Notes: a model not told the origin generated them from the sequence alone. 64,000 nucleotides of DNA from an uncultured Planctomycetia bacterium (GCA_964650515.1 CAZYUB010000012.1:1944-65943), one strand, 5' to 3'. Numbered from the stretch's first letter, positions 46,761 through 64,000 are shown. Translations and numbers: made by a program.

Positions 46761-47111
46761 GGGGGCGAAAGGCTTCGACTTAAGAAGCGAGTTAAGGGTT
46801 GCATGCCGAGGGTGTCAGGTGGCCTCGTTAAAACCTGGCAAAAAAAGTTAAACGCGAACGAACTCGCGCTAGCCGCTTAATTGCGGCACGTCACCCGGTT
46901 TTGCCTGCGAAGCCGGATGTGACGCCGCAGCAGGCTGGTTCCGTTCCTTTCGCCTTTGGGGGGCGGGACGAGATAAATTAAAGGCTAGTCGTTGCGGTAG
47001 CGGGCCTGCTTACGCGCCCGCATCGGCGAAACGACAAATTGCAGGAAACGCATGTAGGAGCTCTTAGCAAGTGACTTAAGGACCGGGGTTCGAATCCCCG
47101 CGCCTCCACCA
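46761..47111 (+). ncRNA. ssrA: tmRNA (SsrA), 351 nt
   Basis: 5' GGGGGCGAAAGGCTTCGAC, and a 3' tRNA-like end GGTTCGAATCCCCGCGCCTCCACCA pairing with the 5' end. Internal tag reading frame GCG AAC GAA CTC GCG CTA GCC GCT TAA (ANELALAA) at 46854-46880. Confidence 0.85.
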
Positions 47112-56393: not shown

Positions 56394-56401
56394 AAAAGCG
56401 T

Positions 56402-56430
56402 TTGACTTTGCGGGGGTGAATTGGTAGAAT
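56402..56430 (+). promoter_or_regulatory. Sigma70-like promoter TTGACT-N17-TAGAAT upstream of the tRNA cluster
   Basis: Near-consensus hexamers with 17-nt spacing. Confidence 0.45.
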
Positions 56431-56449
56431 TTACCTGCGGAACCGTGTT

Positions 56450-56478
56450 CGCTCCCCGACGATTGGGAGCGATTTTTT
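56450..56478 (+). terminator. Hairpin CGCTCCC-N8-GGGAGCG followed by ATTTTTT; terminator-like element between the putative promoter and tRNA-Pro
   Basis: 7-bp GC-rich stem plus a T-run on the plus strand only. Confidence 0.35.
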
Positions 56479-56516
56479 AATCCTGGAGCGCTGGATCATA
56501 CAGGCACAAATATATC

Positions 56517-56594
56517 CGGGGCGTAGCGCAGTTTGGCTAGCGCGTCTGCTTTGGGAGCAGAAGGTCCTCGGTTCAAGTCCGAGCGCCCCGACCA
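56517..56594 (+). tRNA. tRNA-Pro (anticodon TGG)
   Basis: Acceptor CGGGGCG/CGCCCCG, anticodon loop TTTGGGA, T-loop TTCAAGT, ACCA 3' end. Confidence 0.85.
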
Positions 56595-56625
56595 TAAATT
56601 CCCGCTATCGGTGTTTATGAATTAT

Positions 56626-56702
56626 GCGCCTGTAGCTCAGTTGGATAGAGCAGCTGCCTTCTAAGCAGCGGGCCGGGCGTTCGAGTCGCCCCAGGCGCGC
56701 CA
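56626..56702 (+). tRNA. tRNA-Arg (anticodon TCT)
   Basis: Acceptor GCGCCTG/CAGGCGC, anticodon loop CTTCTAA, T-loop TTCGAGT, GCCA 3' end. Confidence 0.85.
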
Positions 56703-56821
56703 TAAATTCCCCTATACAGGGGTAGCGAATTTAGTCCGAGCTCAGCTGAGCGGAATATCGTAGAGATTCCGCCAGCGTATTGAGCGAGGAAAAAGTAGTT
56801 GTTATAGGTATAGATTTCAAC

Positions 56822-56899
56822 GGTGGGTGTAGCTCAGCTGGTTAGAGCACGGGACTGTGGCTCCCGTTGTCGCGGGTTCGATCCCCGTCACCCACCCCA
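56822..56899 (+). tRNA. tRNA-His (anticodon GTG) with G-1
   Basis: Extra 5' G pairing with discriminator C; acceptor GTGGGTG/CACCCAC; anticodon loop CTGTGGC. Confidence 0.85.
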
Positions 56900-56924
56900 G
56901 TAATTCCGTTCTCTCTGGATAATG

Positions 56925-56960
56925 GGAGAATTCAAAGCCTATGATCGGTATCTCTGGTCA
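56925..56960 (+). terminator. Rho-independent terminator after the tRNA cluster
   Basis: AAGCCTATGA-N13-TCATAGGCTT followed by TTT. Confidence 0.7.
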
Positions 56961-57186
56961 TAGGCTTTTTATCTGTCGCTGTGTCAAAGACTTAGAGTAT
57001 TGCAGTAATTGGCACAGTTATGCGTCATTCTCATCGGATATCTGTAAAGAATCCCTCCCTGTTTTGCGCCAATAAATCGCCAAAATCGGCCGATTCCTCT
57101 CTTAGTTTATAGTCGATAGTTTATGGCCTGATTCAGCCATTATTTTGTTATAATATGGCTATAAACTAAGAAGAGAGGAATAACGC

Positions 57187-58353
57187 ATGAAGGTTGGTCG
57201 CAACGATCCGTGCCCCTGTGGAAGCGGGAAAAAATATAAGAAATGCTGTCTAATCAAGGATACAATGATTGTGAGCGATTTAAAGAATATCAGATTAGAA
57301 GAAGTAAAGGATCCAAAGGAAATCGAACGGATTAAAAAGGAGATTGAGATAAAACAAGGCCCAGAACCGCATATAAATTTAGTGCCCAGCATTATTTGGA
57401 AAGGCTACAGATGGCGCTCTATTTATAGTACATTACATGCGCGGAATTTACATGAAACATTTGATGAATTTATTCTTGTCAGGCTAAAAAGTCACTTTGG
57501 ACCAGAATGGAAGGCCGAGCAAGACAAGCTGCCACCGGAGAAGCAGCATATATTATTGAAATGGCTCCGGGCCTTAAATAAATTATCTGTTTCAAAAAAC
57601 GTCGTAAAGCATGGAGAGCATTTGTGGTCAGTTGAAGCCACAGGACCTGTAAGGGCGCTTAATCAGTTTGCCTACGATGTTTATTGCCTTGAATCGCAAA
57701 AGAAGCTCCCTGAATTTTTAATTAAAAAAATAAAGAATTATAACGAATTTCAAGGTGCTAGATATGAAATTGCAACAGCCGCAATAATGCTAAGGGCTGG
57801 TTATGAAATCGAATTTTTAGACGATAAACATTTGCAGGAAAAACATTGCGAATTTATAGCCAAGCACCGCATTAGCGGTATTTCATATGGCGTAGAAGCT
57901 AAAAGTCGCCGACGTAAAGGGGTAATGCATGAAGAGGGCGAATTCGATCCCTCTAGAGATGTGAAGGGAGATGTCCAGAATTTATTAAAAAAGGCAATTG
58001 CGCAGCGCCCCAAAGGAATGCCATTTATAATTTTCATTGATCTGAATCTCCCGCCTGAACCAAATGTTAAAATTGAGAATAGAAGATGGTTTGCCGACGT
58101 TAAGAATATTTTAGATGAGAGAGGCAAGTCCTCAGATATTAATCCCGACCCATTTAATGCGTTAATACTGACGAATTTTTCATATTATTATCAAGGAGAT
58201 GATGAAGTTGCCAGCGGTGGAGAATATCTTCAGATAATAGGTTTTTATCCAGAGAATAAAGTGTATAAAAATTATCCTGTGCAAGATATTCAGCCCCTCG
58301 AAGATATTAGAGGTTGTCTAGATAGATATAGCTATATACCTAAAGAAGTCTGA
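57187..58353 (+). CDS. SEC-C motif (zinc-binding) domain protein with a C-terminal region showing a PD-(D/E)XK-like signature (putative nuclease)
   Basis: 388 aa, AT-rich gene (visibly lower GC than the flanks). N-terminal GRNDPCPCGSGKKYKKCC. Candidate D...(E)xK: FLDD ... GVEAKSRR. GAGAGGAA ribosome-binding site. Confidence 0.65.
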   Translation: MKVGRNDPCPCGSGKKYKKCCLIKDTMIVSDLKNIRLEEVKDPKEIERIKKEIEIKQGPEPHINLVPSIIWKGYRWRSIYSTLHARNLHETFDEFILVRLKSHFGPEWKAEQDKLPPEKQHILLKWLRALNKLSVSKNVVKHGEHLWSVEATGPVRALNQFAYDVYCLESQKKLPEFLIKKIKNYNEFQGARYEIATAAIMLRAGYEIEFLDDKHLQEKHCEFIAKHRISGISYGVEAKSRRRKGVMHEEGEFDPSRDVKGDVQNLLKKAIAQRPKGMPFIIFIDLNLPPEPNVKIENRRWFADVKNILDERGKSSDINPDPFNALILTNFSYYYQGDDEVASGGEYLQIIGFYPENKVYKNYPVQDIQPLEDIRGCLDRYSYIPKEV

Positions 58354-58767
58354 TCATTGTTGGGAGGGGAGCCTTAGGTCGATTTCAACTCTTGCCACAT
58401 TATGAGCATTTTTGCTAGCCTGCCCCCCCATTAGTTGTACCACTTCTTAAGAGAGTCTAGCAGATACCCTCAAGAGCAAAGAAACGCCTCTTAAATCCCG
58501 CACTAGCCGTAAACAAAGAGGCTATCCCCTTGCGCCTTATTACTGGCGGTCGTGACGAGAGTCACCTCTCAAATCTATCAAGTTCAAAATAATACTTCTT
58601 TTCTAATAAAATATATCTTGACAAAACTAAATGCCAGCGCTAATCTATGAAAAGTAGTCGAAACGTTTCGAGCTTATCCAGTCGAAGTAACTAAACAATG
58701 GCTAACCTCTGGAAGTCCAAAGATGGCGTCGACTCATTCAAGCCTTAAAGAAAAAATCACAATCTAA

Positions 58768-58794
58768 AACGGCAATGATCATTGCCGTTTTTTG
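58768..58794. terminator. Perfectly palindromic hairpin AACGGCAATGATCATTGCCGTT flanked by A-run/T-run (bidirectional terminator-like)
   Basis: 11-bp perfect stem, then TTTTTT on the plus strand and TTTT on the minus strand. Confidence 0.65.
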
Positions 58795-60471
58795 TTCTTA
58801 TTACAGTTCACAAAAGTCAAATCAAGGTTCTTCCACTTGAAAAAAGATCCCCTGCTTTATCAAGTCGTAGCCTTCTTTTGGATATGCGCCATACTATATT
58901 TTAACCCCCGCATATTCGCGTTGCTCGTAGGCCCTGAAAATATTGCCGCAAAATTGACAATAGTATTTTTTGCGATCCTTCTTAATCTGTTCTGGTTTTA
59001 CGCATTTTATCATCTGGTAATAATAGTATTCTCCTACCTAAGAAATTCCAACCTGTATCGCGCGTCAAACATAGCTAACGCAACAGATAGTTCTCGCGTC
59101 GCTCTTTTATATGCGACATGCAACGACTTTAAGGAAGATGCGGTCTTATCTTGCCTCAGCCAGGATTATCCAAATGTCCATACGTTCATTCTGGATGACG
59201 GCGATGATGAAGCTTTCAAAATGAGAATAGATGAGTTTTGCCGTCACCATAAAGGCGAAGTAACTGTAATGCGCCGTGCTGGCAGGCAAGGCTTCAAGGC
59301 CGGCAACCTTAATAATTGCCTTAATGAAATAGACGGTTTCAAATACATCAGCGTTTCCGACGCGGACACCATATTGCCCGGGGATTACGTATCAAAGCTT
59401 CTGCCATATTTCTGTGACCCGAGGACAGCATTCGTCCAATCGAGGCAGGAGTTTAATCCGGCCCAGAGCTCTTCTTTTGCGCAGGGCCTCGGCTACCAGA
59501 TAGAGCTTCATTGCGACCATTATCTGAAGACGAAGAATCAATACGGATTTGTCATGTTCTACGGGCATGGCGCTTTGATGCGGACGGACGTATTAAAGGA
59601 AATAGGCGGTTTCCCCGAAGTGGCGACGGAGGACCTGGCATATTCAATGGAAATAAGGCGAAAGGGATATCACGGCGTTTACGCGCAGGATGTTACGTGC
59701 CTCGAGGAATTCCCGCCGACATTCCGGCAGTATCGCAAACGAAACGATAAATGGATAAAGGGTACGGCGGAGTGCCTGTTAAAGTATTTCCCGTCTTTTC
59801 TTAAGTGCAGTGGTATCAGCCGTGTCGAGAAGTTTGATGTATTCGTGTCCGCGCTAAGCCTTCTTCTAAGCCTTCCCTTTGTACTGCTTCTGCTATTGGT
59901 GGGTATCATGCTTCCATATTATTACTCGCATTTCCAGTTCCAGGGGCCGATGTTCAAGATGCCGCTTTCTTATAATGGGACTTTCCTTGGCGCCTTGACG
60001 GGGATCTCGAGCAACCTCTTTTGGAGATGGGACTTTTTCCTGATGTTGCTGTTGACGCTCGCCGCGCCCGTTTTACCCGCTATATTGCAGGCAATCCGCG
60101 ACCCGGTCAAAAAGATCCGCTTCATAATAATGTATACATTCATATTTTACGCTACGCAGGTAAGCTCGGCGTGGGCGCTCGTCGCGTACCTGATAAGCAA
60201 GAAGGCCGAATTTCCGGTTACGGGGGATGCTTCCGAATGGCGCGGAGTTAACAAGCCTGTTTTTATCGTCGAATGCGCGGGCGCTGCGCTATTTTTGTCG
60301 ATAAGTCTTATTTCGAGGAATATATGGTTCTTGTCATTCGCCGCGGGTATTGCAGCAGGAGTATTGATTCTAAAACGCGGCTTCGAAAATAAATTGGCAA
60401 GGATATCCGCAGTTATTCCCATAATAATCCTGGCGGTAATAGTGGTTTTTATCGGCAGGAAGCTCCAATAA
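58792..60471 (+). CDS. Family-2 glycosyltransferase, membrane-integrated (2 N-terminal + C-terminal TM; cellulose-synthase/OpgH-like processive type)
   Basis: DDGDD and DADT Asp motifs and a QYRKRNDKW (QxxRW-like) block. No in-frame ATG near the 5' end; start is TTG 58792 (inside the hairpin) or TTG 58846. Confidence 0.75.
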   Translation: MFLLQFTKVKSRFFHLKKDPLLYQVVAFFWICAILYFNPRIFALLVGPENIAAKLTIVFFAILLNLFWFYAFYHLVIIVFSYLRNSNLYRASNIANATDSSRVALLYATCNDFKEDAVLSCLSQDYPNVHTFILDDGDDEAFKMRIDEFCRHHKGEVTVMRRAGRQGFKAGNLNNCLNEIDGFKYISVSDADTILPGDYVSKLLPYFCDPRTAFVQSRQEFNPAQSSSFAQGLGYQIELHCDHYLKTKNQYGFVMFYGHGALMRTDVLKEIGGFPEVATEDLAYSMEIRRKGYHGVYAQDVTCLEEFPPTFRQYRKRNDKWIKGTAECLLKYFPSFLKCSGISRVEKFDVFVSALSLLLSLPFVLLLLLVGIMLPYYYSHFQFQGPMFKMPLSYNGTFLGALTGISSNLFWRWDFFLMLLLTLAAPVLPAILQAIRDPVKKIRFIIMYTFIFYATQVSSAWALVAYLISKKAEFPVTGDASEWRGVNKPVFIVECAGAALFLSISLISRNIWFLSFAAGIAAGVLILKRGFENKLARISAVIPIIILAVIVVFIGRKLQ

Positions 60472-60487
60472 CAAAAGGGAGGCTGAA

Positions 60488-63400
60488 GTGAAAAGGAAGA
60501 TACTGATAGTCGCCGCGATGTTAATGATGACGACCGCGTTCCTGGCGGGTTTCGAATTGACCGATGAAGTTATTGCTTTCCGCGCTCTCGAGGAAGGCAA
60601 CTATCAGGGCGCGCTCGAGATATATATCAAGAATAATAATAATTCCGGGGCAGGTATGGCGTACCTCGGTTTGAAACGTTTCGATGACGCTAAGGAAAAA
60701 TTTGAAAAGGCGGGCGATCTGTCCGGCATCGGCCTTGCCTATTGCGGAAAACACCTTTATGACGAAGCTATAAGGAACTTCGAACAGAAGAGGGATAACT
60801 CCGGCATCGGCCTTGCCTATTGCGGCAAGAGGGATTTTAACGCCGCAAGGGGGTATTTTAGGCAGGCGAACGACTATTCCGGCATGGGTCTGGCGGCTCT
60901 CGGAGAAAATAAAACGGATGAAGCGAGGGAATGGTTTACCAAAGTAGGGGATAAGGGCGGCCTCGGGCTTGTTCTTTTGGCCGAGAAGAAATATGATGAA
61001 GCCCTGAAGAGCTTTACCGCCATAAAAGACAACTCCGGCGCAGGACACGCATATTGCGGAAAGAAAGATTACAGCTCGGCCTTGACATATTTTAAGAAAG
61101 CCAACGACCTTTCCGGCCTTAGCCTCGCCTATTCAGGCAAGAATATGTATACCGAGGCGATAAGATACGCTGTCGAGGCGAACGATTATTCCGCGCTCGG
61201 ACATGCCTATCTGGGCAAGCACGACTATAAGGAAGCGCTGGATAGCTTCACGAAGGCCAATGACCTTTCCGGTATCGGTTTTGTCTATTGCAAACAAAAG
61301 GACTTCGCCAAGGCAGCCCAATACGCGAAAGCCGCAAACGACCTTTCTTTGCAGGGGCAGATATATCTTGGGGCAGGCGACTATAAATCAGCGGAAGACT
61401 GTTTTACGGCAGCTAACGACCTTTCCGGCCTCGGTTTGGTCAACTTAAAGAGCAAAAAATACGATAAAGCGAAGGAATATTTCCAAAAGGCCAACGACAT
61501 GTCCGGCCTCGGTTTTCTTTACGGCGAGATAGGCGATTACTCCAAATCGGAAGAGTGCTTTACCAAAGCCAACGACATGGCCGGTCTCGGTAGGATGGCG
61601 CTTAAAAGAAAGCAGTTCAACGAAGCGATCGCGTATTTCAAGAAGTCCAACGACCTCGATGGCCTCGGCGACCTTTATTGGCAGTTGAGGAGTTTCGATA
61701 AGTCGATAGAGTGTTTCAAGGCGGTAGGCGATGACATCAAGGTCGTCCAGGCCTTGCGCGAGAAGAAGAGAAGGGATCCCATAACAAACAAGGTCAGCTA
61801 TTACGGATCCGAGGATGCCATCGCATACGCGAAAGCCAAGATAGAAGAAGGAAAATTCGTCGCGCCTTTGCATATCGAGATCGGGCACATATACAGCTCG
61901 CGTAACGACTTTGAGAACGCCTTGAAGGAGTACGAAGCCGCCTTGAACAGCGATACTTACTATGCGGCCGACGCGCTTTTTTGGATAGGCAAAACCCGCT
62001 ATCAACAGAAAAACTATCAGCTCGCGAAAGAAGTTTTCAGCAACCTCGTCGCGAAATACCCCTATCATCGCCTATCGTATGAGGCGCGCGGCGCTGTAAA
62101 ATATTTGGAAAGGTCTGGTAAAGCATCGGCTGGTTTACCAGCGAATAATATATGCGGACCTTATGCCTTAAAACTGCTTCTCTGTAACTACGGGATAGAA
62201 GCCGCGACAGATGAGATCGCGAAAGCCGCCGGGACGGATAAAGAAGGCACTACCATGCTCGGTCTCATCCAAGCCGCGAAGCTGAGCGGTTTGGAGATAT
62301 CGGCATTCAAAACGGATTCCGGCAAACTCAGGGGGTACGCCGGCAAGGCTGTCCTGTTCATCAATAATTCCCACTACGTGTTTTTGAAAGAGGTTAGAGC
62401 GGCGGGAGTGCTGGTTACCGATAACATAGCTGACTCGTACATGACTTTCAGCGCCCTGGACATGTGCTGGCAGGGACAGATCATCGCCATAAAGACAGAC
62501 CCAGGCATAAAGGAGTTCGCTTACGACGAGCTGGCGAGCATTAAAGGAGGAAACCGCAGGGCTTCGGAGGGCGGTACCACTAAGAACGATCCTGGCTTAT
62601 ATCCGAACGGGTCATTAACACTTGATTACGGTAAAATAGGCCCGATCGTACCGGGCGATTATTTGATGATGAATAATCTTTCGGATTCGGGAACCGGGCA
62701 CAATCCCCAGCCTGATGGCGGGATGGGGATGACGCGTATGGGTACCGGCGAGAACGCGCTCGGAGGACAGCAATGTGATGCCGTATTTGACCCAATAGCA
62801 ATAACGGGCGGCCAGGTTATCATACCAAAGGAAGACATATTTATCCCTTGCAGGGGCCGGAAACACGGCATAAACCTGAGCCTTAAAAGGACCTATTCAT
62901 CAAGCAGCGAAGTGGACGGGAAGATAGGTTTTGGCTGGGCGCTTGCGCACGATGTTAAACTGCGGGTTATACCGGCGGAAGGCGACGACCCGCAGCATGT
63001 TATCGTGACGACTCCCGACGGGACTATATTCAGCTATGAGTATGACGGAGAAGGCTTTTACTATATGCCTGAATGCGACGGCTCATACGTCAAAAAAAAT
63101 GAGGATGGATCATATTATTGGATGCGCCAGACCGTAATGTATGGATTACAAAAGTATTATTTTGAAGTATATGTAACGGAGACCACAACTCATCGTATCA
63201 AAAAAATAGAAGATCTTAACAGTAATTACCTTATTTATATATATGCGGGGGCTAATCTCACTAAGATATATGATAACTACAGCAGGTTTTTAAGTTTTAC
63301 GTATCTCGACGGAAGGATAGATACCGTAACCGGCGGGAAAAGCACAGTCACGGTGACATATAGCTACGATTACGACGAGAACGGCAACCTTACCCTGGTT

Positions 63401-64000
63401 AACGGTCCTGAAAATTATTCGGAAAGATACGAATACGAAGACGCAAATAATATACACAATGTCACTGCATATGTTGACGCCGAATACAACAGGACGGAAT
63501 ACACCTATGAGCAGGACCCATCAGGCTTAAGTGATGTCTGCGTTGAAGTAAGGGACGCGCTAGATAATCCCGCTACTTACGACTACTTGTTCGAGATAGG
63601 TGTCACGACGGTTGTGGATGCGCGCGGACGTACCAGCGTTTATGAATACGAAAAGGGCAAAATTAACAAAATCACCAACTCGAACGGCGGCATAACATAC
63701 TATTCGTTTGACGACACTTATATGCGCAATTCGATAACCGATGAGCATAACAGAGGATGCGGGTGGTTGAATAAATATCATTATGGCTTGGTGGAAACAT
63801 TGGACAACGAAGAAGGCTATAGCGCATATTTCGGTTATAATTCATTCGCTTACATAGAATGGATATCCGACGTTAAGAACAGGGCCTGGACATACGAATA
63901 CGATGATAACGGTAATTTAAGATACAGACGCGCGCCCGCTCCTAACAACCAGGGAACGTCGACGGTTGAAAAGCAGTACGGTTTAGGCGGTTGTCTTACG
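60488..64000 (+). CDS. Large secreted protein, 3' partial (>1171 aa): signal peptide, ~14 tandem 26-aa repeats, TPR-like region, C39-like papain-fold Cys peptidase domain, YD/RHS repeats
   Basis: I translated the frame codon by codon from GTG 60488 (GGGAGG ribosome-binding site 7 nt upstream) to 64000 with no stop. It is absent from the track because there is no stop in the window. Signal peptide MKRKILIVAAMLMMTTAFLAG. Peptidase motifs CGPYAL (Cys556) and NSHYVFL (His629). YD repeats such as VTYSYDYDENGNLTLV and WTYEYDDNGNLRYRR. Confidence 0.8.
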   Translation, partial: MKRKILIVAAMLMMTTAFLAGFELTDEVIAFRALEEGNYQGALEIYIKNNNNSGAGMAYLGLKRFDDAKEKFEKAGDLSGIGLAYCGKHLYDEAIRNFEQKRDNSGIGLAYCGKRDFNAARGYFRQANDYSGMGLAALGENKTDEAREWFTKVGDKGGLGLVLLAEKKYDEALKSFTAIKDNSGAGHAYCGKKDYSSALTYFKKANDLSGLSLAYSGKNMYTEAIRYAVEANDYSALGHAYLGKHDYKEALDSFTKANDLSGIGFVYCKQKDFAKAAQYAKAANDLSLQGQIYLGAGDYKSAEDCFTAANDLSGLGLVNLKSKKYDKAKEYFQKANDMSGLGFLYGEIGDYSKSEECFTKANDMAGLGRMALKRKQFNEAIAYFKKSNDLDGLGDLYWQLRSFDKSIECFKAVGDDIKVVQALREKKRRDPITNKVSYYGSEDAIAYAKAKIEEGKFVAPLHIEIGHIYSSRNDFENALKEYEAALNSDTYYAADALFWIGKTRYQQKNYQLAKEVFSNLVAKYPYHRLSYEARGAVKYLERSGKASAGLPANNICGPYALKLLLCNYGIEAATDEIAKAAGTDKEGTTMLGLIQAAKLSGLEISAFKTDSGKLRGYAGKAVLFINNSHYVFLKEVRAAGVLVTDNIADSYMTFSALDMCWQGQIIAIKTDPGIKEFAYDELASIKGGNRRASEGGTTKNDPGLYPNGSLTLDYGKIGPIVPGDYLMMNNLSDSGTGHNPQPDGGMGMTRMGTGENALGGQQCDAVFDPIAITGGQVIIPKEDIFIPCRGRKHGINLSLKRTYSSSSEVDGKIGFGWALAHDVKLRVIPAEGDDPQHVIVTTPDGTIFSYEYDGEGFYYMPECDGSYVKKNEDGSYYWMRQTVMYGLQKYYFEVYVTETTTHRIKKIEDLNSNYLIYIYAGANLTKIYDNYSRFLSFTYLDGRIDTVTGGKSTVTVTYSYDYDENGNLTLVNGPENYSERYEYEDANNIHNVTAYVDAEYNRTEYTYEQDPSGLSDVCVEVRDALDNPATYDYLFEIGVTTVVDARGRTSVYEYEKGKINKITNSNGGITYYSFDDTYMRNSITDEHNRGCGWLNKYHYGLVETLDNEEGYSAYFGYNSFAYIEWISDVKNRAWTYEYDDNGNLRYRRAPAPNNQGTSTVEKQYGLGGCLT
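60590..61730 (+). repeat. Tandem in-frame 78-bp (26-aa) repeat array, ~14 units, consensus ANDLSGLGLAYxGKxDYxEAxxxFxK
   Basis: Regular 26-residue periodicity in the translated protein. DNA-level near-identical copies, e.g. TCCGGCATCGGCCTTGCCTATTGCGG at 60722 and 60800, 78 nt apart. Confidence 0.75.

Follow-up and report, generated by a model that had tools for sequence, protein, structure and literature searches.

The DNA behind the tRNA-Pro/Arg/His cluster of an uncultured Planctomycetia bacterium (GCA_964650515.1 CAZYUB010000012.1:1944-65943) is visibly rich in A+T, and the initial annotation of this 64,000-nucleotide (nt) stretch (the window) took everything from 56900 to 64000 for one island. 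How much of this DNA is mobile, and what put it there? We consider it probable that 56900 to ~58571 is the relic of an integrative element of the large serine recombinase (LSR) type at a tRNA-His hotspot, and that the glycosyltransferase (GT2) and RHS-like genes to its right are resident. The segment would then be composite, since a mobile relic (56900-~58571) is followed by a resident GT2-RHS pair from 58595. The features on which the argument turns are as follows.

56517-56594, plus strand: tRNA-Pro (ARAGORN)
56626-56702, plus strand: tRNA-Arg (ARAGORN)
56823-56899, plus strand: tRNA-His(GTG) (ARAGORN)
56894-56899, plus strand: ACCCCA, the last 6 nt of tRNA-His, putative attachment core and left junction
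56900-57186, plus strand: conserved left block of ~290 nt, starting at the first base past tRNA-His
57187-58353, plus strand: SEC-C cargo gene, 388 amino acids (aa), an N-terminal SEC-C zinc motif and a body with D...ExK
58374-58421, minus strand: 3' stub of an LSR gene, stop and last ~15 codons, 48 nt
58422-58571, plus strand: right-end module

An exact left boundary at a variable site

We compared the window with eight Candidatus Omnitrophota contigs from metagenome-assembled genomes, recovered by scanning with the neighbouring AsmA-like protein. We take the source of the window itself to be an uncultivated member of the Omnitrophota. The order tRNA-Leu, tmRNA, ..., AsmA, tRNA Pro-Arg-His is common to all eight. 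In the closest relative, L001 (AsmA 95% identical in aa and 91% in nt), the alignment to the window stops at 56899, the final base of tRNA-His, and homology to L005 likewise ends at 56899. The left boundary of the window element is exact and lies at the 3' end of tRNA-His, which bears out the earlier suggestion of integration at the tRNA cluster.

Past this point gene order is not conserved: the SEC-C, GT2 and RHS-like proteins are encoded in none of the eight loci, and none of the genes seen past tRNA-His in the relatives occurs anywhere in the 64-kb window. L004 has an empty site, where ACCCCA of tRNA-His and a T-run are followed by GreA. L001 carries a 1.25-kb unit flanked by ACCCCA (a PEMT-like gene and a 129-aa open reading frame (ORF)), then GreA; L002 and L007 have a PEMT-like gene past tRNA-His; and L005 has two small ORFs, then epimerase, OprB, MFS, GH130 and GT4. 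The flank is found in at least four different states across the eight relatives, and comparison of occupied with empty sites (the window against L001, L004 and L005) shows that the insertion lies precisely where the RNA gene ends. The contigs of four relatives (L003, L006, L007 and L008) stop at or within ~300 nt of the tRNA cluster, consistent with strain-level heterogeneity at the site disrupting assemblies. Because the relatives differ there and half of their contigs end near the cluster, the tRNA-His flank can be regarded as a genuine insertion hotspot.

A recombinase stub behind the SEC-C gene

The initial annotation reported no integrase in the window. A remnant of one is recognizable from L009, a 2.3-kb contig that holds a 93% identical relative of the SEC-C protein and whose DNA is 92% identical to window 57071-58419. 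In L009 a convergent gene lies 21 nt past SEC-C, and its 322 available residues contain the Pfam domains Recombinase and Zn_ribbon_recom. The window encodes LIMWQELKST* at 58412-58377 on the minus strand, with 11 of 12 residues identical to the end of the L009 gene. Similarity to L009 ends at ~58419-58421, the remainder of the LSR gene being deleted. With just this 48-nt stub left, the window copy is a relic and not a functional member, in keeping with the 'old or decayed' island that had been envisaged.

Full-length relatives of the recombinase are ~536 aa long and have Resolvase, Recombinase and Zn_ribbon domains. The family has 375 matches, and Omnitrophota account for nearly all of the top ~50; it shares homology with the serine integrases of TP901-1 and A118. 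An integrase of the serine type, and not of the tyrosine type that a tRNA target usually suggests, accounts for the absence of a long direct repeat of the tRNA. The initial annotation had noted no clear repeat, and the 26-nt 3' end of tRNA-His has no second copy in the window, either exact or with up to 3 mismatches. A tyrosine integrase (Pfam Phage_integrase) was found neither in the window segment nor in the annotated related loci.

A second stub is found in L037, where tRNA-His, the left block and a 92% identical SEC-C gene are followed by an LSR stub (L037 1543-1628) ~17 nt longer than that of the window and then by different genes. The two stubs are distinct, so the recombinase was lost at least twice from SEC-C-bearing copies. 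A single shared truncation at a site-specific boundary was considered and rejected, as the stubs end ~17 nt apart and the DNA downstream differs. The near coincidence of the two truncations may reflect selection to retain the 3' region of the convergent SEC-C gene, or an LSR 3' end that is itself fragile or recombinogenic.

Intact elements and tandem arrays at the same tRNA

Intact relatives of the element occupy the same tRNA. In L017 the order is AsmA, tRNA Pro-Arg-His, 305 nt, the LSR gene with its 3' end towards the tRNA, DUF2924, Vsr, Dcm, ParB_N-methylase and more. Its LSR is 82% identical to the L009 fragment, and the other side of the tRNA cluster holds the same core genes as the window. 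tRNA-His, block and LSR also occur in L014, L015/16, L019, L033, L035 and L050, with 0-5 genes between them. Cargo in the related loci includes an Eco57I-type methylase, SNF2/PLD, AAA_13, PDDEXK, a KAP NTPase and a MafB19-like deaminase. Phage structural or conjugation genes are absent from the annotated related loci, and the viral contigs of IMG/VR contain neither close LSR relatives nor the motif of the left block described below. A degraded prophage was rejected on these grounds.

The ends of the units are marked by a conserved right arm of ~35 nt with the consensus AGAGAGGT.TCCCCTCG...GAGGGACCCCA, and 13 of 22 distinct right arms terminate in [G/T/A]ACCCCA. Arms close the small inserts of L001, just ahead of GreA, and of L005. 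They are repeated within single loci: at least five copies in L013, three units in L015/16 and six in L054. Tandem accretion, including that of units without a recombinase, is seen in L013, L015/16, L018, L042 and L054; the window holds one relic unit.

Two of these loci, L013 and L015, lie on one 552-kb contig (ena:ERZ27247117:k141_343398, 1-11675 and 48073-69683), which carries two LSR copies ~58 kb apart (identity to the L009 fragment 83% and 77%). Of these, the one at the start of the contig stands behind ACCCCA and a block, has no tRNA within 10 kb and adjoins a 440-aa MafB19-like deaminase.

The left block and its terminator

The first ~290 nt of the element are conserved irrespective of what follows. 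In the window they comprise the features below.

56909-56930: small hairpin
56934-56968: intrinsic terminator
56992-57002: conserved TTAG.G.ATTG
57095-57125: near-invariant motif TCCTCTCTTAGTTTATAGTCGATAGTTTATG
57146-57154: extended -10 TGTTATAAT
57157-57170: inverted partner GGCTATAAACTAAG / GCCATAAACTAG, ~40 nt past the motif
3' part of the block, before 57187: ribosome-binding site (RBS) of SEC-C

The block carries a triple repeat of TAGTTTATG, and the window motif reads as TCCTCTCTTAGTTTATGGNNGCTAGTTTATG with 2 mismatches. Scanning metagenome contigs with the exact motif pattern yielded 38 further loci, in 14 of which tRNA-His lies ~273 nt upstream of the motif. Altogether 36 distinct full-length copies of the block stand either behind tRNA-His or behind an arm and ACCCCA, with motif and inverted partner almost invariant. 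The terminator stem folds in 26 of 29 foldable copies by way of at least four unrelated stem sequences, that is, with covariation. Where the block lies away from a tRNA, ACCCCA directly precedes it and the conserved right arm AGAGAGGTTTCCCCTCGGCTAATATGAGAGGG precedes that. The block is present in the window, L006, L014, L017 and L037 and absent from L001, L002/7, L004 and L005, a distribution at odds with the relatedness of the genomes.

The arrangement TTAGTTTATGG-N4-CTAGTTTATG, with the inverted CCATAAACTAG ~40 nt further on, is near-invariant in all left blocks, regardless of cargo and with or without an LSR. It sits ~200 nt from the att core (36 copies, L013-L055). Candidate roles are those of an operator, an accessory recombination site or a site of cargo exchange, any of which it may serve. 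Crossover at the TAGTTTATG/CATAAACTA palindrome rather than at ACCCCA is disfavoured because units that have no block are still bounded by ACCCCA (L001, L005 and L013); the palindrome is a possible second site.

The right end and the stretch before GT2

The 438 nt at 58354-58791, first described as noncoding, resolve into four parts: the LSR stub, the right-end module, a promoter and a terminator-containing GT2 leader. The last two are not parts of the element.

58434-58453: GTTGTACCACTTCTTAAGAG in the right-end module
58509-58546: right-arm variant GTAAACAAAGAGGCTATCCCCTTGCGCCTTATTACTGG
58557-58571: GAGAGTCACCTCTCA, a degenerate match to the end of tRNA-His (GTCACCCACCCCA), putative attR remnant
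58618-58646, plus strand: GT2 promoter, sigma-70-like, TTGACA, 17 nt, TAATCT
to 58791, plus strand: GT2 leader, ~145 nt, with an intrinsic terminator at 58766-58791

Window 58487-58571 is 84% identical to L056 9650-9735, just upstream of a GT2 homolog, and is similar to L056 106-190 too; L056 and the intact element L017 share one 42-kb contig, with L056 at its distal end. Window 58425-58452 recurs on L056 ahead of another copy of the arm. We read 58422-58571 as the right-end module because of this homology, the arm variant and the terminus resembling the tRNA end. At that terminus L057 has GATCACCTCCCCA where the window has GAGAGTCACCTCTCA. A regular-expression search of 57200-64000 found neither a canonical right arm (up to 4 errors) nor a second motif. 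The distal repeat in the window amounts to the degenerate GTCACCTCTCA at 58561-58571, behind the arm variant, and is not a close one. The assignment of 58557-58571 as a putative attR remnant draws on its position and family resemblance rather than on a clean repeat. An internal deletion, as we infer it, would have joined the right-end module to the LSR stub at 58421/58422. On this evidence the mobile relic would end at ~58571, far short of the 64000 first proposed.

A chimeric contig, in which the assembly joined strains at tRNA-His or at the SEC-C/GT2 junction, would imitate such an arrangement. Assemblies do break at or near tRNA-His in the same four relatives (L003, L006, L007 and L008), the sample ERZ27247363 has SEC-C with an LSR (L009) and GT2 with RHS (L057) on separate contigs, and the 58421/58422 junction has no second witness. 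Against this, L037 independently has the order tRNA-His, block, SEC-C, LSR stub, and L056 independently has the right-end module followed by the GT2 promoter. We therefore regard an artefact of assembly as very unlikely, and keep to a relic that ends ahead of the promoter.

L057/L058 retain the promoter and leader, as does L056, where the terminator stem has changed in a compensatory way; no Rfam family matches them. They lie at 9765-9940 in L057 and at ~9790-9990 in L056, which with the window makes three divergent genomes. The leader is a candidate attenuator or riboswitch.

GT2 and RHS form a conserved, probably resident pair

Beyond the element lie two genes that the initial annotation had counted with SEC-C as accessory cargo.

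58792-60471, plus strand: GT2, a multi-pass membrane, cellulose/PNAG-synthase-like glycosyltransferase (Pfam, NCBIfam)
60488-64000, plus strand, runs off the window: 5' 3.5 kb of a giant TPR / Peptidase_C39 / DUF6531 / RHS-YD repeat gene

Pfam confirms all three gene identities, SEC-C, GT2 and RHS, the last as TPR, Peptidase_C39, DUF6531 and RHS; what is not confirmed is that all are accessory, as GT2-RHS is a conserved chromosomal pair. PADLOC matches neither GT2 nor the RHS-like gene, and NCBIfam matches lie far under the curated cut-offs save for the YD repeat model. The GT2 start is 58792 as annotated in a 100% NCBI match, and a TTG at 58837 is more likely. The RHS-like gene begins with GTG behind the RBS GGGAGG, and its L059 homolog is 2051 aa long. 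It has the DUF6531 and RHS repeats of a polymorphic-toxin layout, its C-terminus lying past the window end. The C39 peptidase domain lies inside an RHS protein, whose gene is linked to that of a processive glycosyltransferase.

Homology of the window to L057/L058 begins at 58595, to the right of the element end (GT2 84% and RHS 89.5% identical in aa); the RHS-like protein is 84-90% identical in aa to the L057 and L059 homologs. The pair spans 58792-64000 in the window, 10001-16721 in L057 and 10001-17823 in L059, and occurs in at least three Omnitrophota lineages. Ahead of it in L059-L064 (GT2 70%, RHS 84%) come GH130, GT4, an autotransporter, POR, AMP-ligase and ACT. L060 and L004 are from one assembly, and the sister genome L005 has MFS, GH130 and GT4 after tRNA-His; from this order the pair lies ~20 kb downstream of the same tRNA-His, amid housekeeping genes, in the L004/L005 lineage. 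GT2 identity is 65-70% and AsmA identity 65% over the same lineages, a divergence like that of the core. Very AT-rich small ORFs (GC 0.33-0.35) resembling immunity or orphan cassettes follow the RHS gene in L059.

These observations bear on the view that a single island runs from 56900 to beyond 64000 with SEC-C, GT2 and the RHS-like gene all as cargo, or that GT2-RHS is an older accreted unit of an array. RHS genes are typically accessory; all three genes fall under the core mean in GC and in GC at third codon positions (GC3); and L001 and the seven other relatives have none of them past tRNA-His. AT-rich DNA with RmuC, HTH, AAA and DUF2779-type genes precedes the pair in L057, and the stretch from tRNA-His to GT2 on the L017/L056 contig is, in the parts read (all but ~9 kb in the middle), AT-rich and of mobile type. 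Yet the right-end module of the element stands to the left of GT2, neither arm nor motif occurs in 58600-64000, and GT2 homologs are almost exclusively from Omnitrophota. The setting amid POR, AMP-ligase and ACT in L059-L064 and the core-like divergence of GT2 also speak against cargo, as does a GC deficit that recurs in another lineage together with the dip described below. One island of this extent, or an older accreted unit, is in our judgement unlikely. GT2-RHS is instead best described, from gene order and divergence, as a conserved chromosomal pair outside the element; it may have been acquired anciently, before the lineages split, or may itself be mobile.

The ~20 kb of epimerase, OprB, MFS, GH130, GT4, POR, AMP-ligase and ACT genes of the L004/L005 lineage has no counterpart in the 64-kb window. 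A deletion or rearrangement, possibly between element copies, could have produced the window order of tRNA-His to GT2; this is hypothesis only, and relocation or a different ancestral order may equally be behind it.

The compositional shift is real and extreme for SEC-C

The drop in GC after tRNA-His, the observation from which the initial annotation started, holds up. In 1-kb windows GC is 0.554±0.023 over 1-56000 (minimum 0.476), 0.39 at 57001-59000, 0.47-0.52 at 59000-63000 and 0.43 in the final kb. Core ORFs (n=46) have GC 0.552±0.027, GC3 0.710±0.063 and a maximum codon-usage distance of 0.327. The corresponding values for the three genes are given here.

57187-58353, SEC-C: GC 0.384, GC3 0.347, codon-usage distance 0.408
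58792-60471, GT2: GC 0.465, GC3 0.550, codon-usage distance 0.215
from 60488, open-ended RHS-like ORF: GC 0.483, GC3 0.570, codon-usage distance 0.175

SEC-C exceeds the core maximum of codon-usage distance and is ~6 standard deviations (s.d.) under the core in GC and GC3; GT2 and the RHS-like ORF are ~2.2-3.2 s.d. under, overlapping the lower tail of core ORFs. Beyond 59200 the reduction in GC is modest (0.45-0.54) and overlaps the lower tail of core values. The shift is real, but extreme just for ~56950-59200. In L059, GC3 is 0.48 for GT2, 0.57 for RHS and 0.58-0.68 for their neighbours, and the GC dip of the RHS gene (window 62950-64000) recurs at the matching relative position. Since both deficit and dip are repeated in L059, the low GC of 59200-64000 is taken to be a property of these genes.

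Might the whole segment then be native, an AT-rich region of relaxed selection or of highly expressed short genes after a tRNA operon, or at most a degraded prophage? Intergenic and membrane-protein-coding DNA is often AT-richer, and some core ORFs have GC3 as low as 0.49-0.58. Against a native origin stand the exact break of homology at the tRNA end, the recombinase stub, a SEC-C gene that is ~6 s.d. off in GC3 and belongs to a patchy family, and the same block found away from tRNAs behind an arm and ACCCCA; against a prophage stand the lack of phage structural genes in related elements and the absence of the LSR family and the motif from IMG/VR. We consider an origin without horizontal transfer, or from a prophage, extremely improbable, and an integrative element remains the reading that we follow.

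An Rfam E-value scan of 56400-61000 returned the three tRNAs and otherwise sub-threshold chance matches only (YrlA, DapZ and STnc540). The match to YrlA, a Y RNA-like family, spans tRNA-Pro and tRNA-Arg (56539-56682) at 31 bits against a gathering threshold of 69, and is most probably spurious, caused by the tRNA-like module of YrlA RNAs.

The SEC-C protein may be a nuclease-like factor

The one gene left as cargo of the window element encodes a protein whose zinc motif (residues 5-21) matches Pfam SEC-C at 3.5e-10. Its family has more than 1300 homologs with a patchy phyletic spread, the top identity being 93% and the next 57%. Across 62 sequences E237 and K239 are invariant and D212 is nearly so. 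A confident AlphaFold2 model (pLDDT 88, pTM 0.84) has no significant Foldseek match in the Protein Data Bank (PDB); the matches are weak (best E 0.05, TM ~0.2-0.3), and nearly all of the top ones are PD-(D/E)xK nucleases, among them SfsA, HindIII, BsaWI, FokI and RecU. A sequence profile searched against the PDB matches nothing past the SEC-C motif, and PADLOC and NCBIfam match the protein solely on its 20-aa zinc motif. A 57% homolog adjoins a Vsr / EcoO109I / methylase system. Our best guess, held with moderate to low confidence, is that the protein is a putative PD-(D/E)xK nuclease-like accessory or defence factor.

A model for insertion and accretion at tRNA-His

We propose that in this clade of Omnitrophota a family of elements with an LSR of ~536 aa uses the 3' end of tRNA-His as its attachment site. 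An incoming element would insert directly behind the terminal ACCCCA of the tRNA, and its left block would give the tRNA operon a replacement terminator. The LSR gene would occupy the opposite strand and end on the tRNA side, preceded by DUF2924 and then by mostly restriction-modification (R-M) and defence cargo, and the far end would be the right arm closing in another ACCCCA. Repeated insertion at the regenerated core would build tandem arrays, many of whose units have no recombinase of their own. The window copy, after its internal deletion, would have kept the left block, the SEC-C cargo in the slot between block and LSR, ~15 LSR codons and the right-end module; it would be immobile alone and in principle mobilisable in trans. 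It would be the LSR, and not an unseen enzyme, that catalyses recombination at ACCCCA.

Several points weigh against this account. Excision to a circle is a prediction, and no circular junction was seen. A 6-nt core with a ~290-nt block and sites ~200 nt off resembles the attP of a tyrosine integrase more than the ~50-bp site of an LSR. The proposed attR of the window is degenerate (GTCACCTCTCA against GTCACCCACCCCA), and the 58421/58422 junction is present in one metagenome-assembly contig only. Mobile DNA directly adjoins GT2-RHS in two cases, the window and the L017/L056 contig, and foreign-looking genes precede the pair in L057. Finally, L001 has GreA, GT4 and GH130 past its unit, not GT2, which requires that ~20 kb were rearranged or deleted.

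Comparison with known systems

The ssrA islands of Dehalococcoides are the closest known analogue of the tRNA-His elements. Those islands, described in 2011, stand in tandem at the 3' end of a stable-RNA gene and are bounded by repeats of the gene end (PMC3146451). A ~540-aa serine recombinase lies on the reverse strand beside attL, and the module includes a ParB-domain gene (PMC3146451). The integration module is missing from about half of the islands, which were interpreted as accreted and cis-mobilisable; conjugation and phage genes are absent (PMC3146451). The tRNA-His elements likewise insert at the 3' end of a stable RNA, stack in tandem and, in intact relatives of the window copy, have an LSR by attL and a ParB-domain gene. 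The likeness is drawn from this layout, not from homology of the LSR to DsiB/CcrB specifically.

There are also clear differences. The target is tRNA-His here and transfer-messenger RNA (tmRNA) there, and the tmRNA of the window is unoccupied: its gene (46761-47111, tag ANELALAA) sits 10 kb upstream, in synteny across all relatives, and adjoins no island. The repeat is ~6 nt (ACCCCA) in place of 20 bp, and the partner of the LSR is DUF2924 in place of the second small serine recombinase DsiA. The ~290-nt left block with its own terminator and invariant triple repeat is a feature of the elements described here, the cargo is of defence and R-M type where Dehalococcoides carries reductive dehalogenases, and the phylum is different.

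Accretion is familiar from integrative and conjugative elements (ICEs) and cis-mobilisable elements (CIMEs) at tRNA-Lys or fda in Streptococcus, and from SCCmec/CcrAB at rlmH, where serine recombinases integrate the staphylococcal cassette chromosome (SCC). The tRNA-His elements share with both a site-specific accretion and recombinase-less units with functional-looking ends that could in principle be co-mobilised. They differ in that the Streptococcus elements are conjugative and use tyrosine integrases, and that SCC targets the end of a protein-coding gene.

Islands with P4- or lambda-type tyrosine integrases also favour tRNA 3' ends, carry AT-rich R-M and defence cargo and commonly show integrase decay. 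No tyrosine integrase was found in the annotated loci here, however, and the repeat is far shorter than their usual 15-50 nt; with no Phage_integrase family and no long tRNA repeat, the window element does not belong among them. Integron arrays are similar in layout only, as short, mostly single-gene, promoter-dependent units with shared boundaries and one recombinase. The present arrays have a serine recombinase at the distal end, no attI/attC, and units that each bring a terminator and apparently a promoter region too. They are not integrons, the recombinase being of serine type and the boundaries consisting of arm, ACCCCA and block instead of attC.

A more far-reaching interpretation, which we think unlikely, is that the tRNA-His flank might be a gene-capture platform driven by a serine recombinase, in which one distal LSR (with DUF2924) might insert, stack and exchange units in trans. 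Possibly, though we would not favour it, the mostly recombinase-less units of such a platform would each start with a ~290-nt module (terminator and three copies of TAGTTTATG) and end in arm and ACCCCA. As doubtful a suggestion is that it is functionally integron-like and mechanistically separate, its invariant repeat acting as an accessory site, for recombination or for regulation, of a kind not seen in known LSR systems.

Implications

A recent preprint on complete Omnitrophota genomes describes numerous hypervariable loci in which recombinases and R-M genes abound, and does not report the tRNA-His site or this family; in the searchable literature we found no description of either. The window element is a decayed member of a newly delineated family, and as such an ordinary feature of a known kind. 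The annotation of the locus is corrected accordingly: mobile DNA amounts to 1.7 kb and not 7 kb, the integrase remnant is named and the gap before GT2 is accounted for. GT2-RHS is better treated as a surface or toxin module conserved in the clade than as island cargo.

LSRs with mapped natural attB/attP pairs are sought for genome engineering, and the att sites reconstructed here are directly testable candidates. The arrays also provide an inventory of small cargo genes of defence type, among them the uncharacterised SEC-C/nuclease-like family. In a phylum without cultivated members, an insertion hotspot and its element family are now defined at the level of single bases by ACCCCA of tRNA-His, the left block, the right arm and the LSR with DUF2924.

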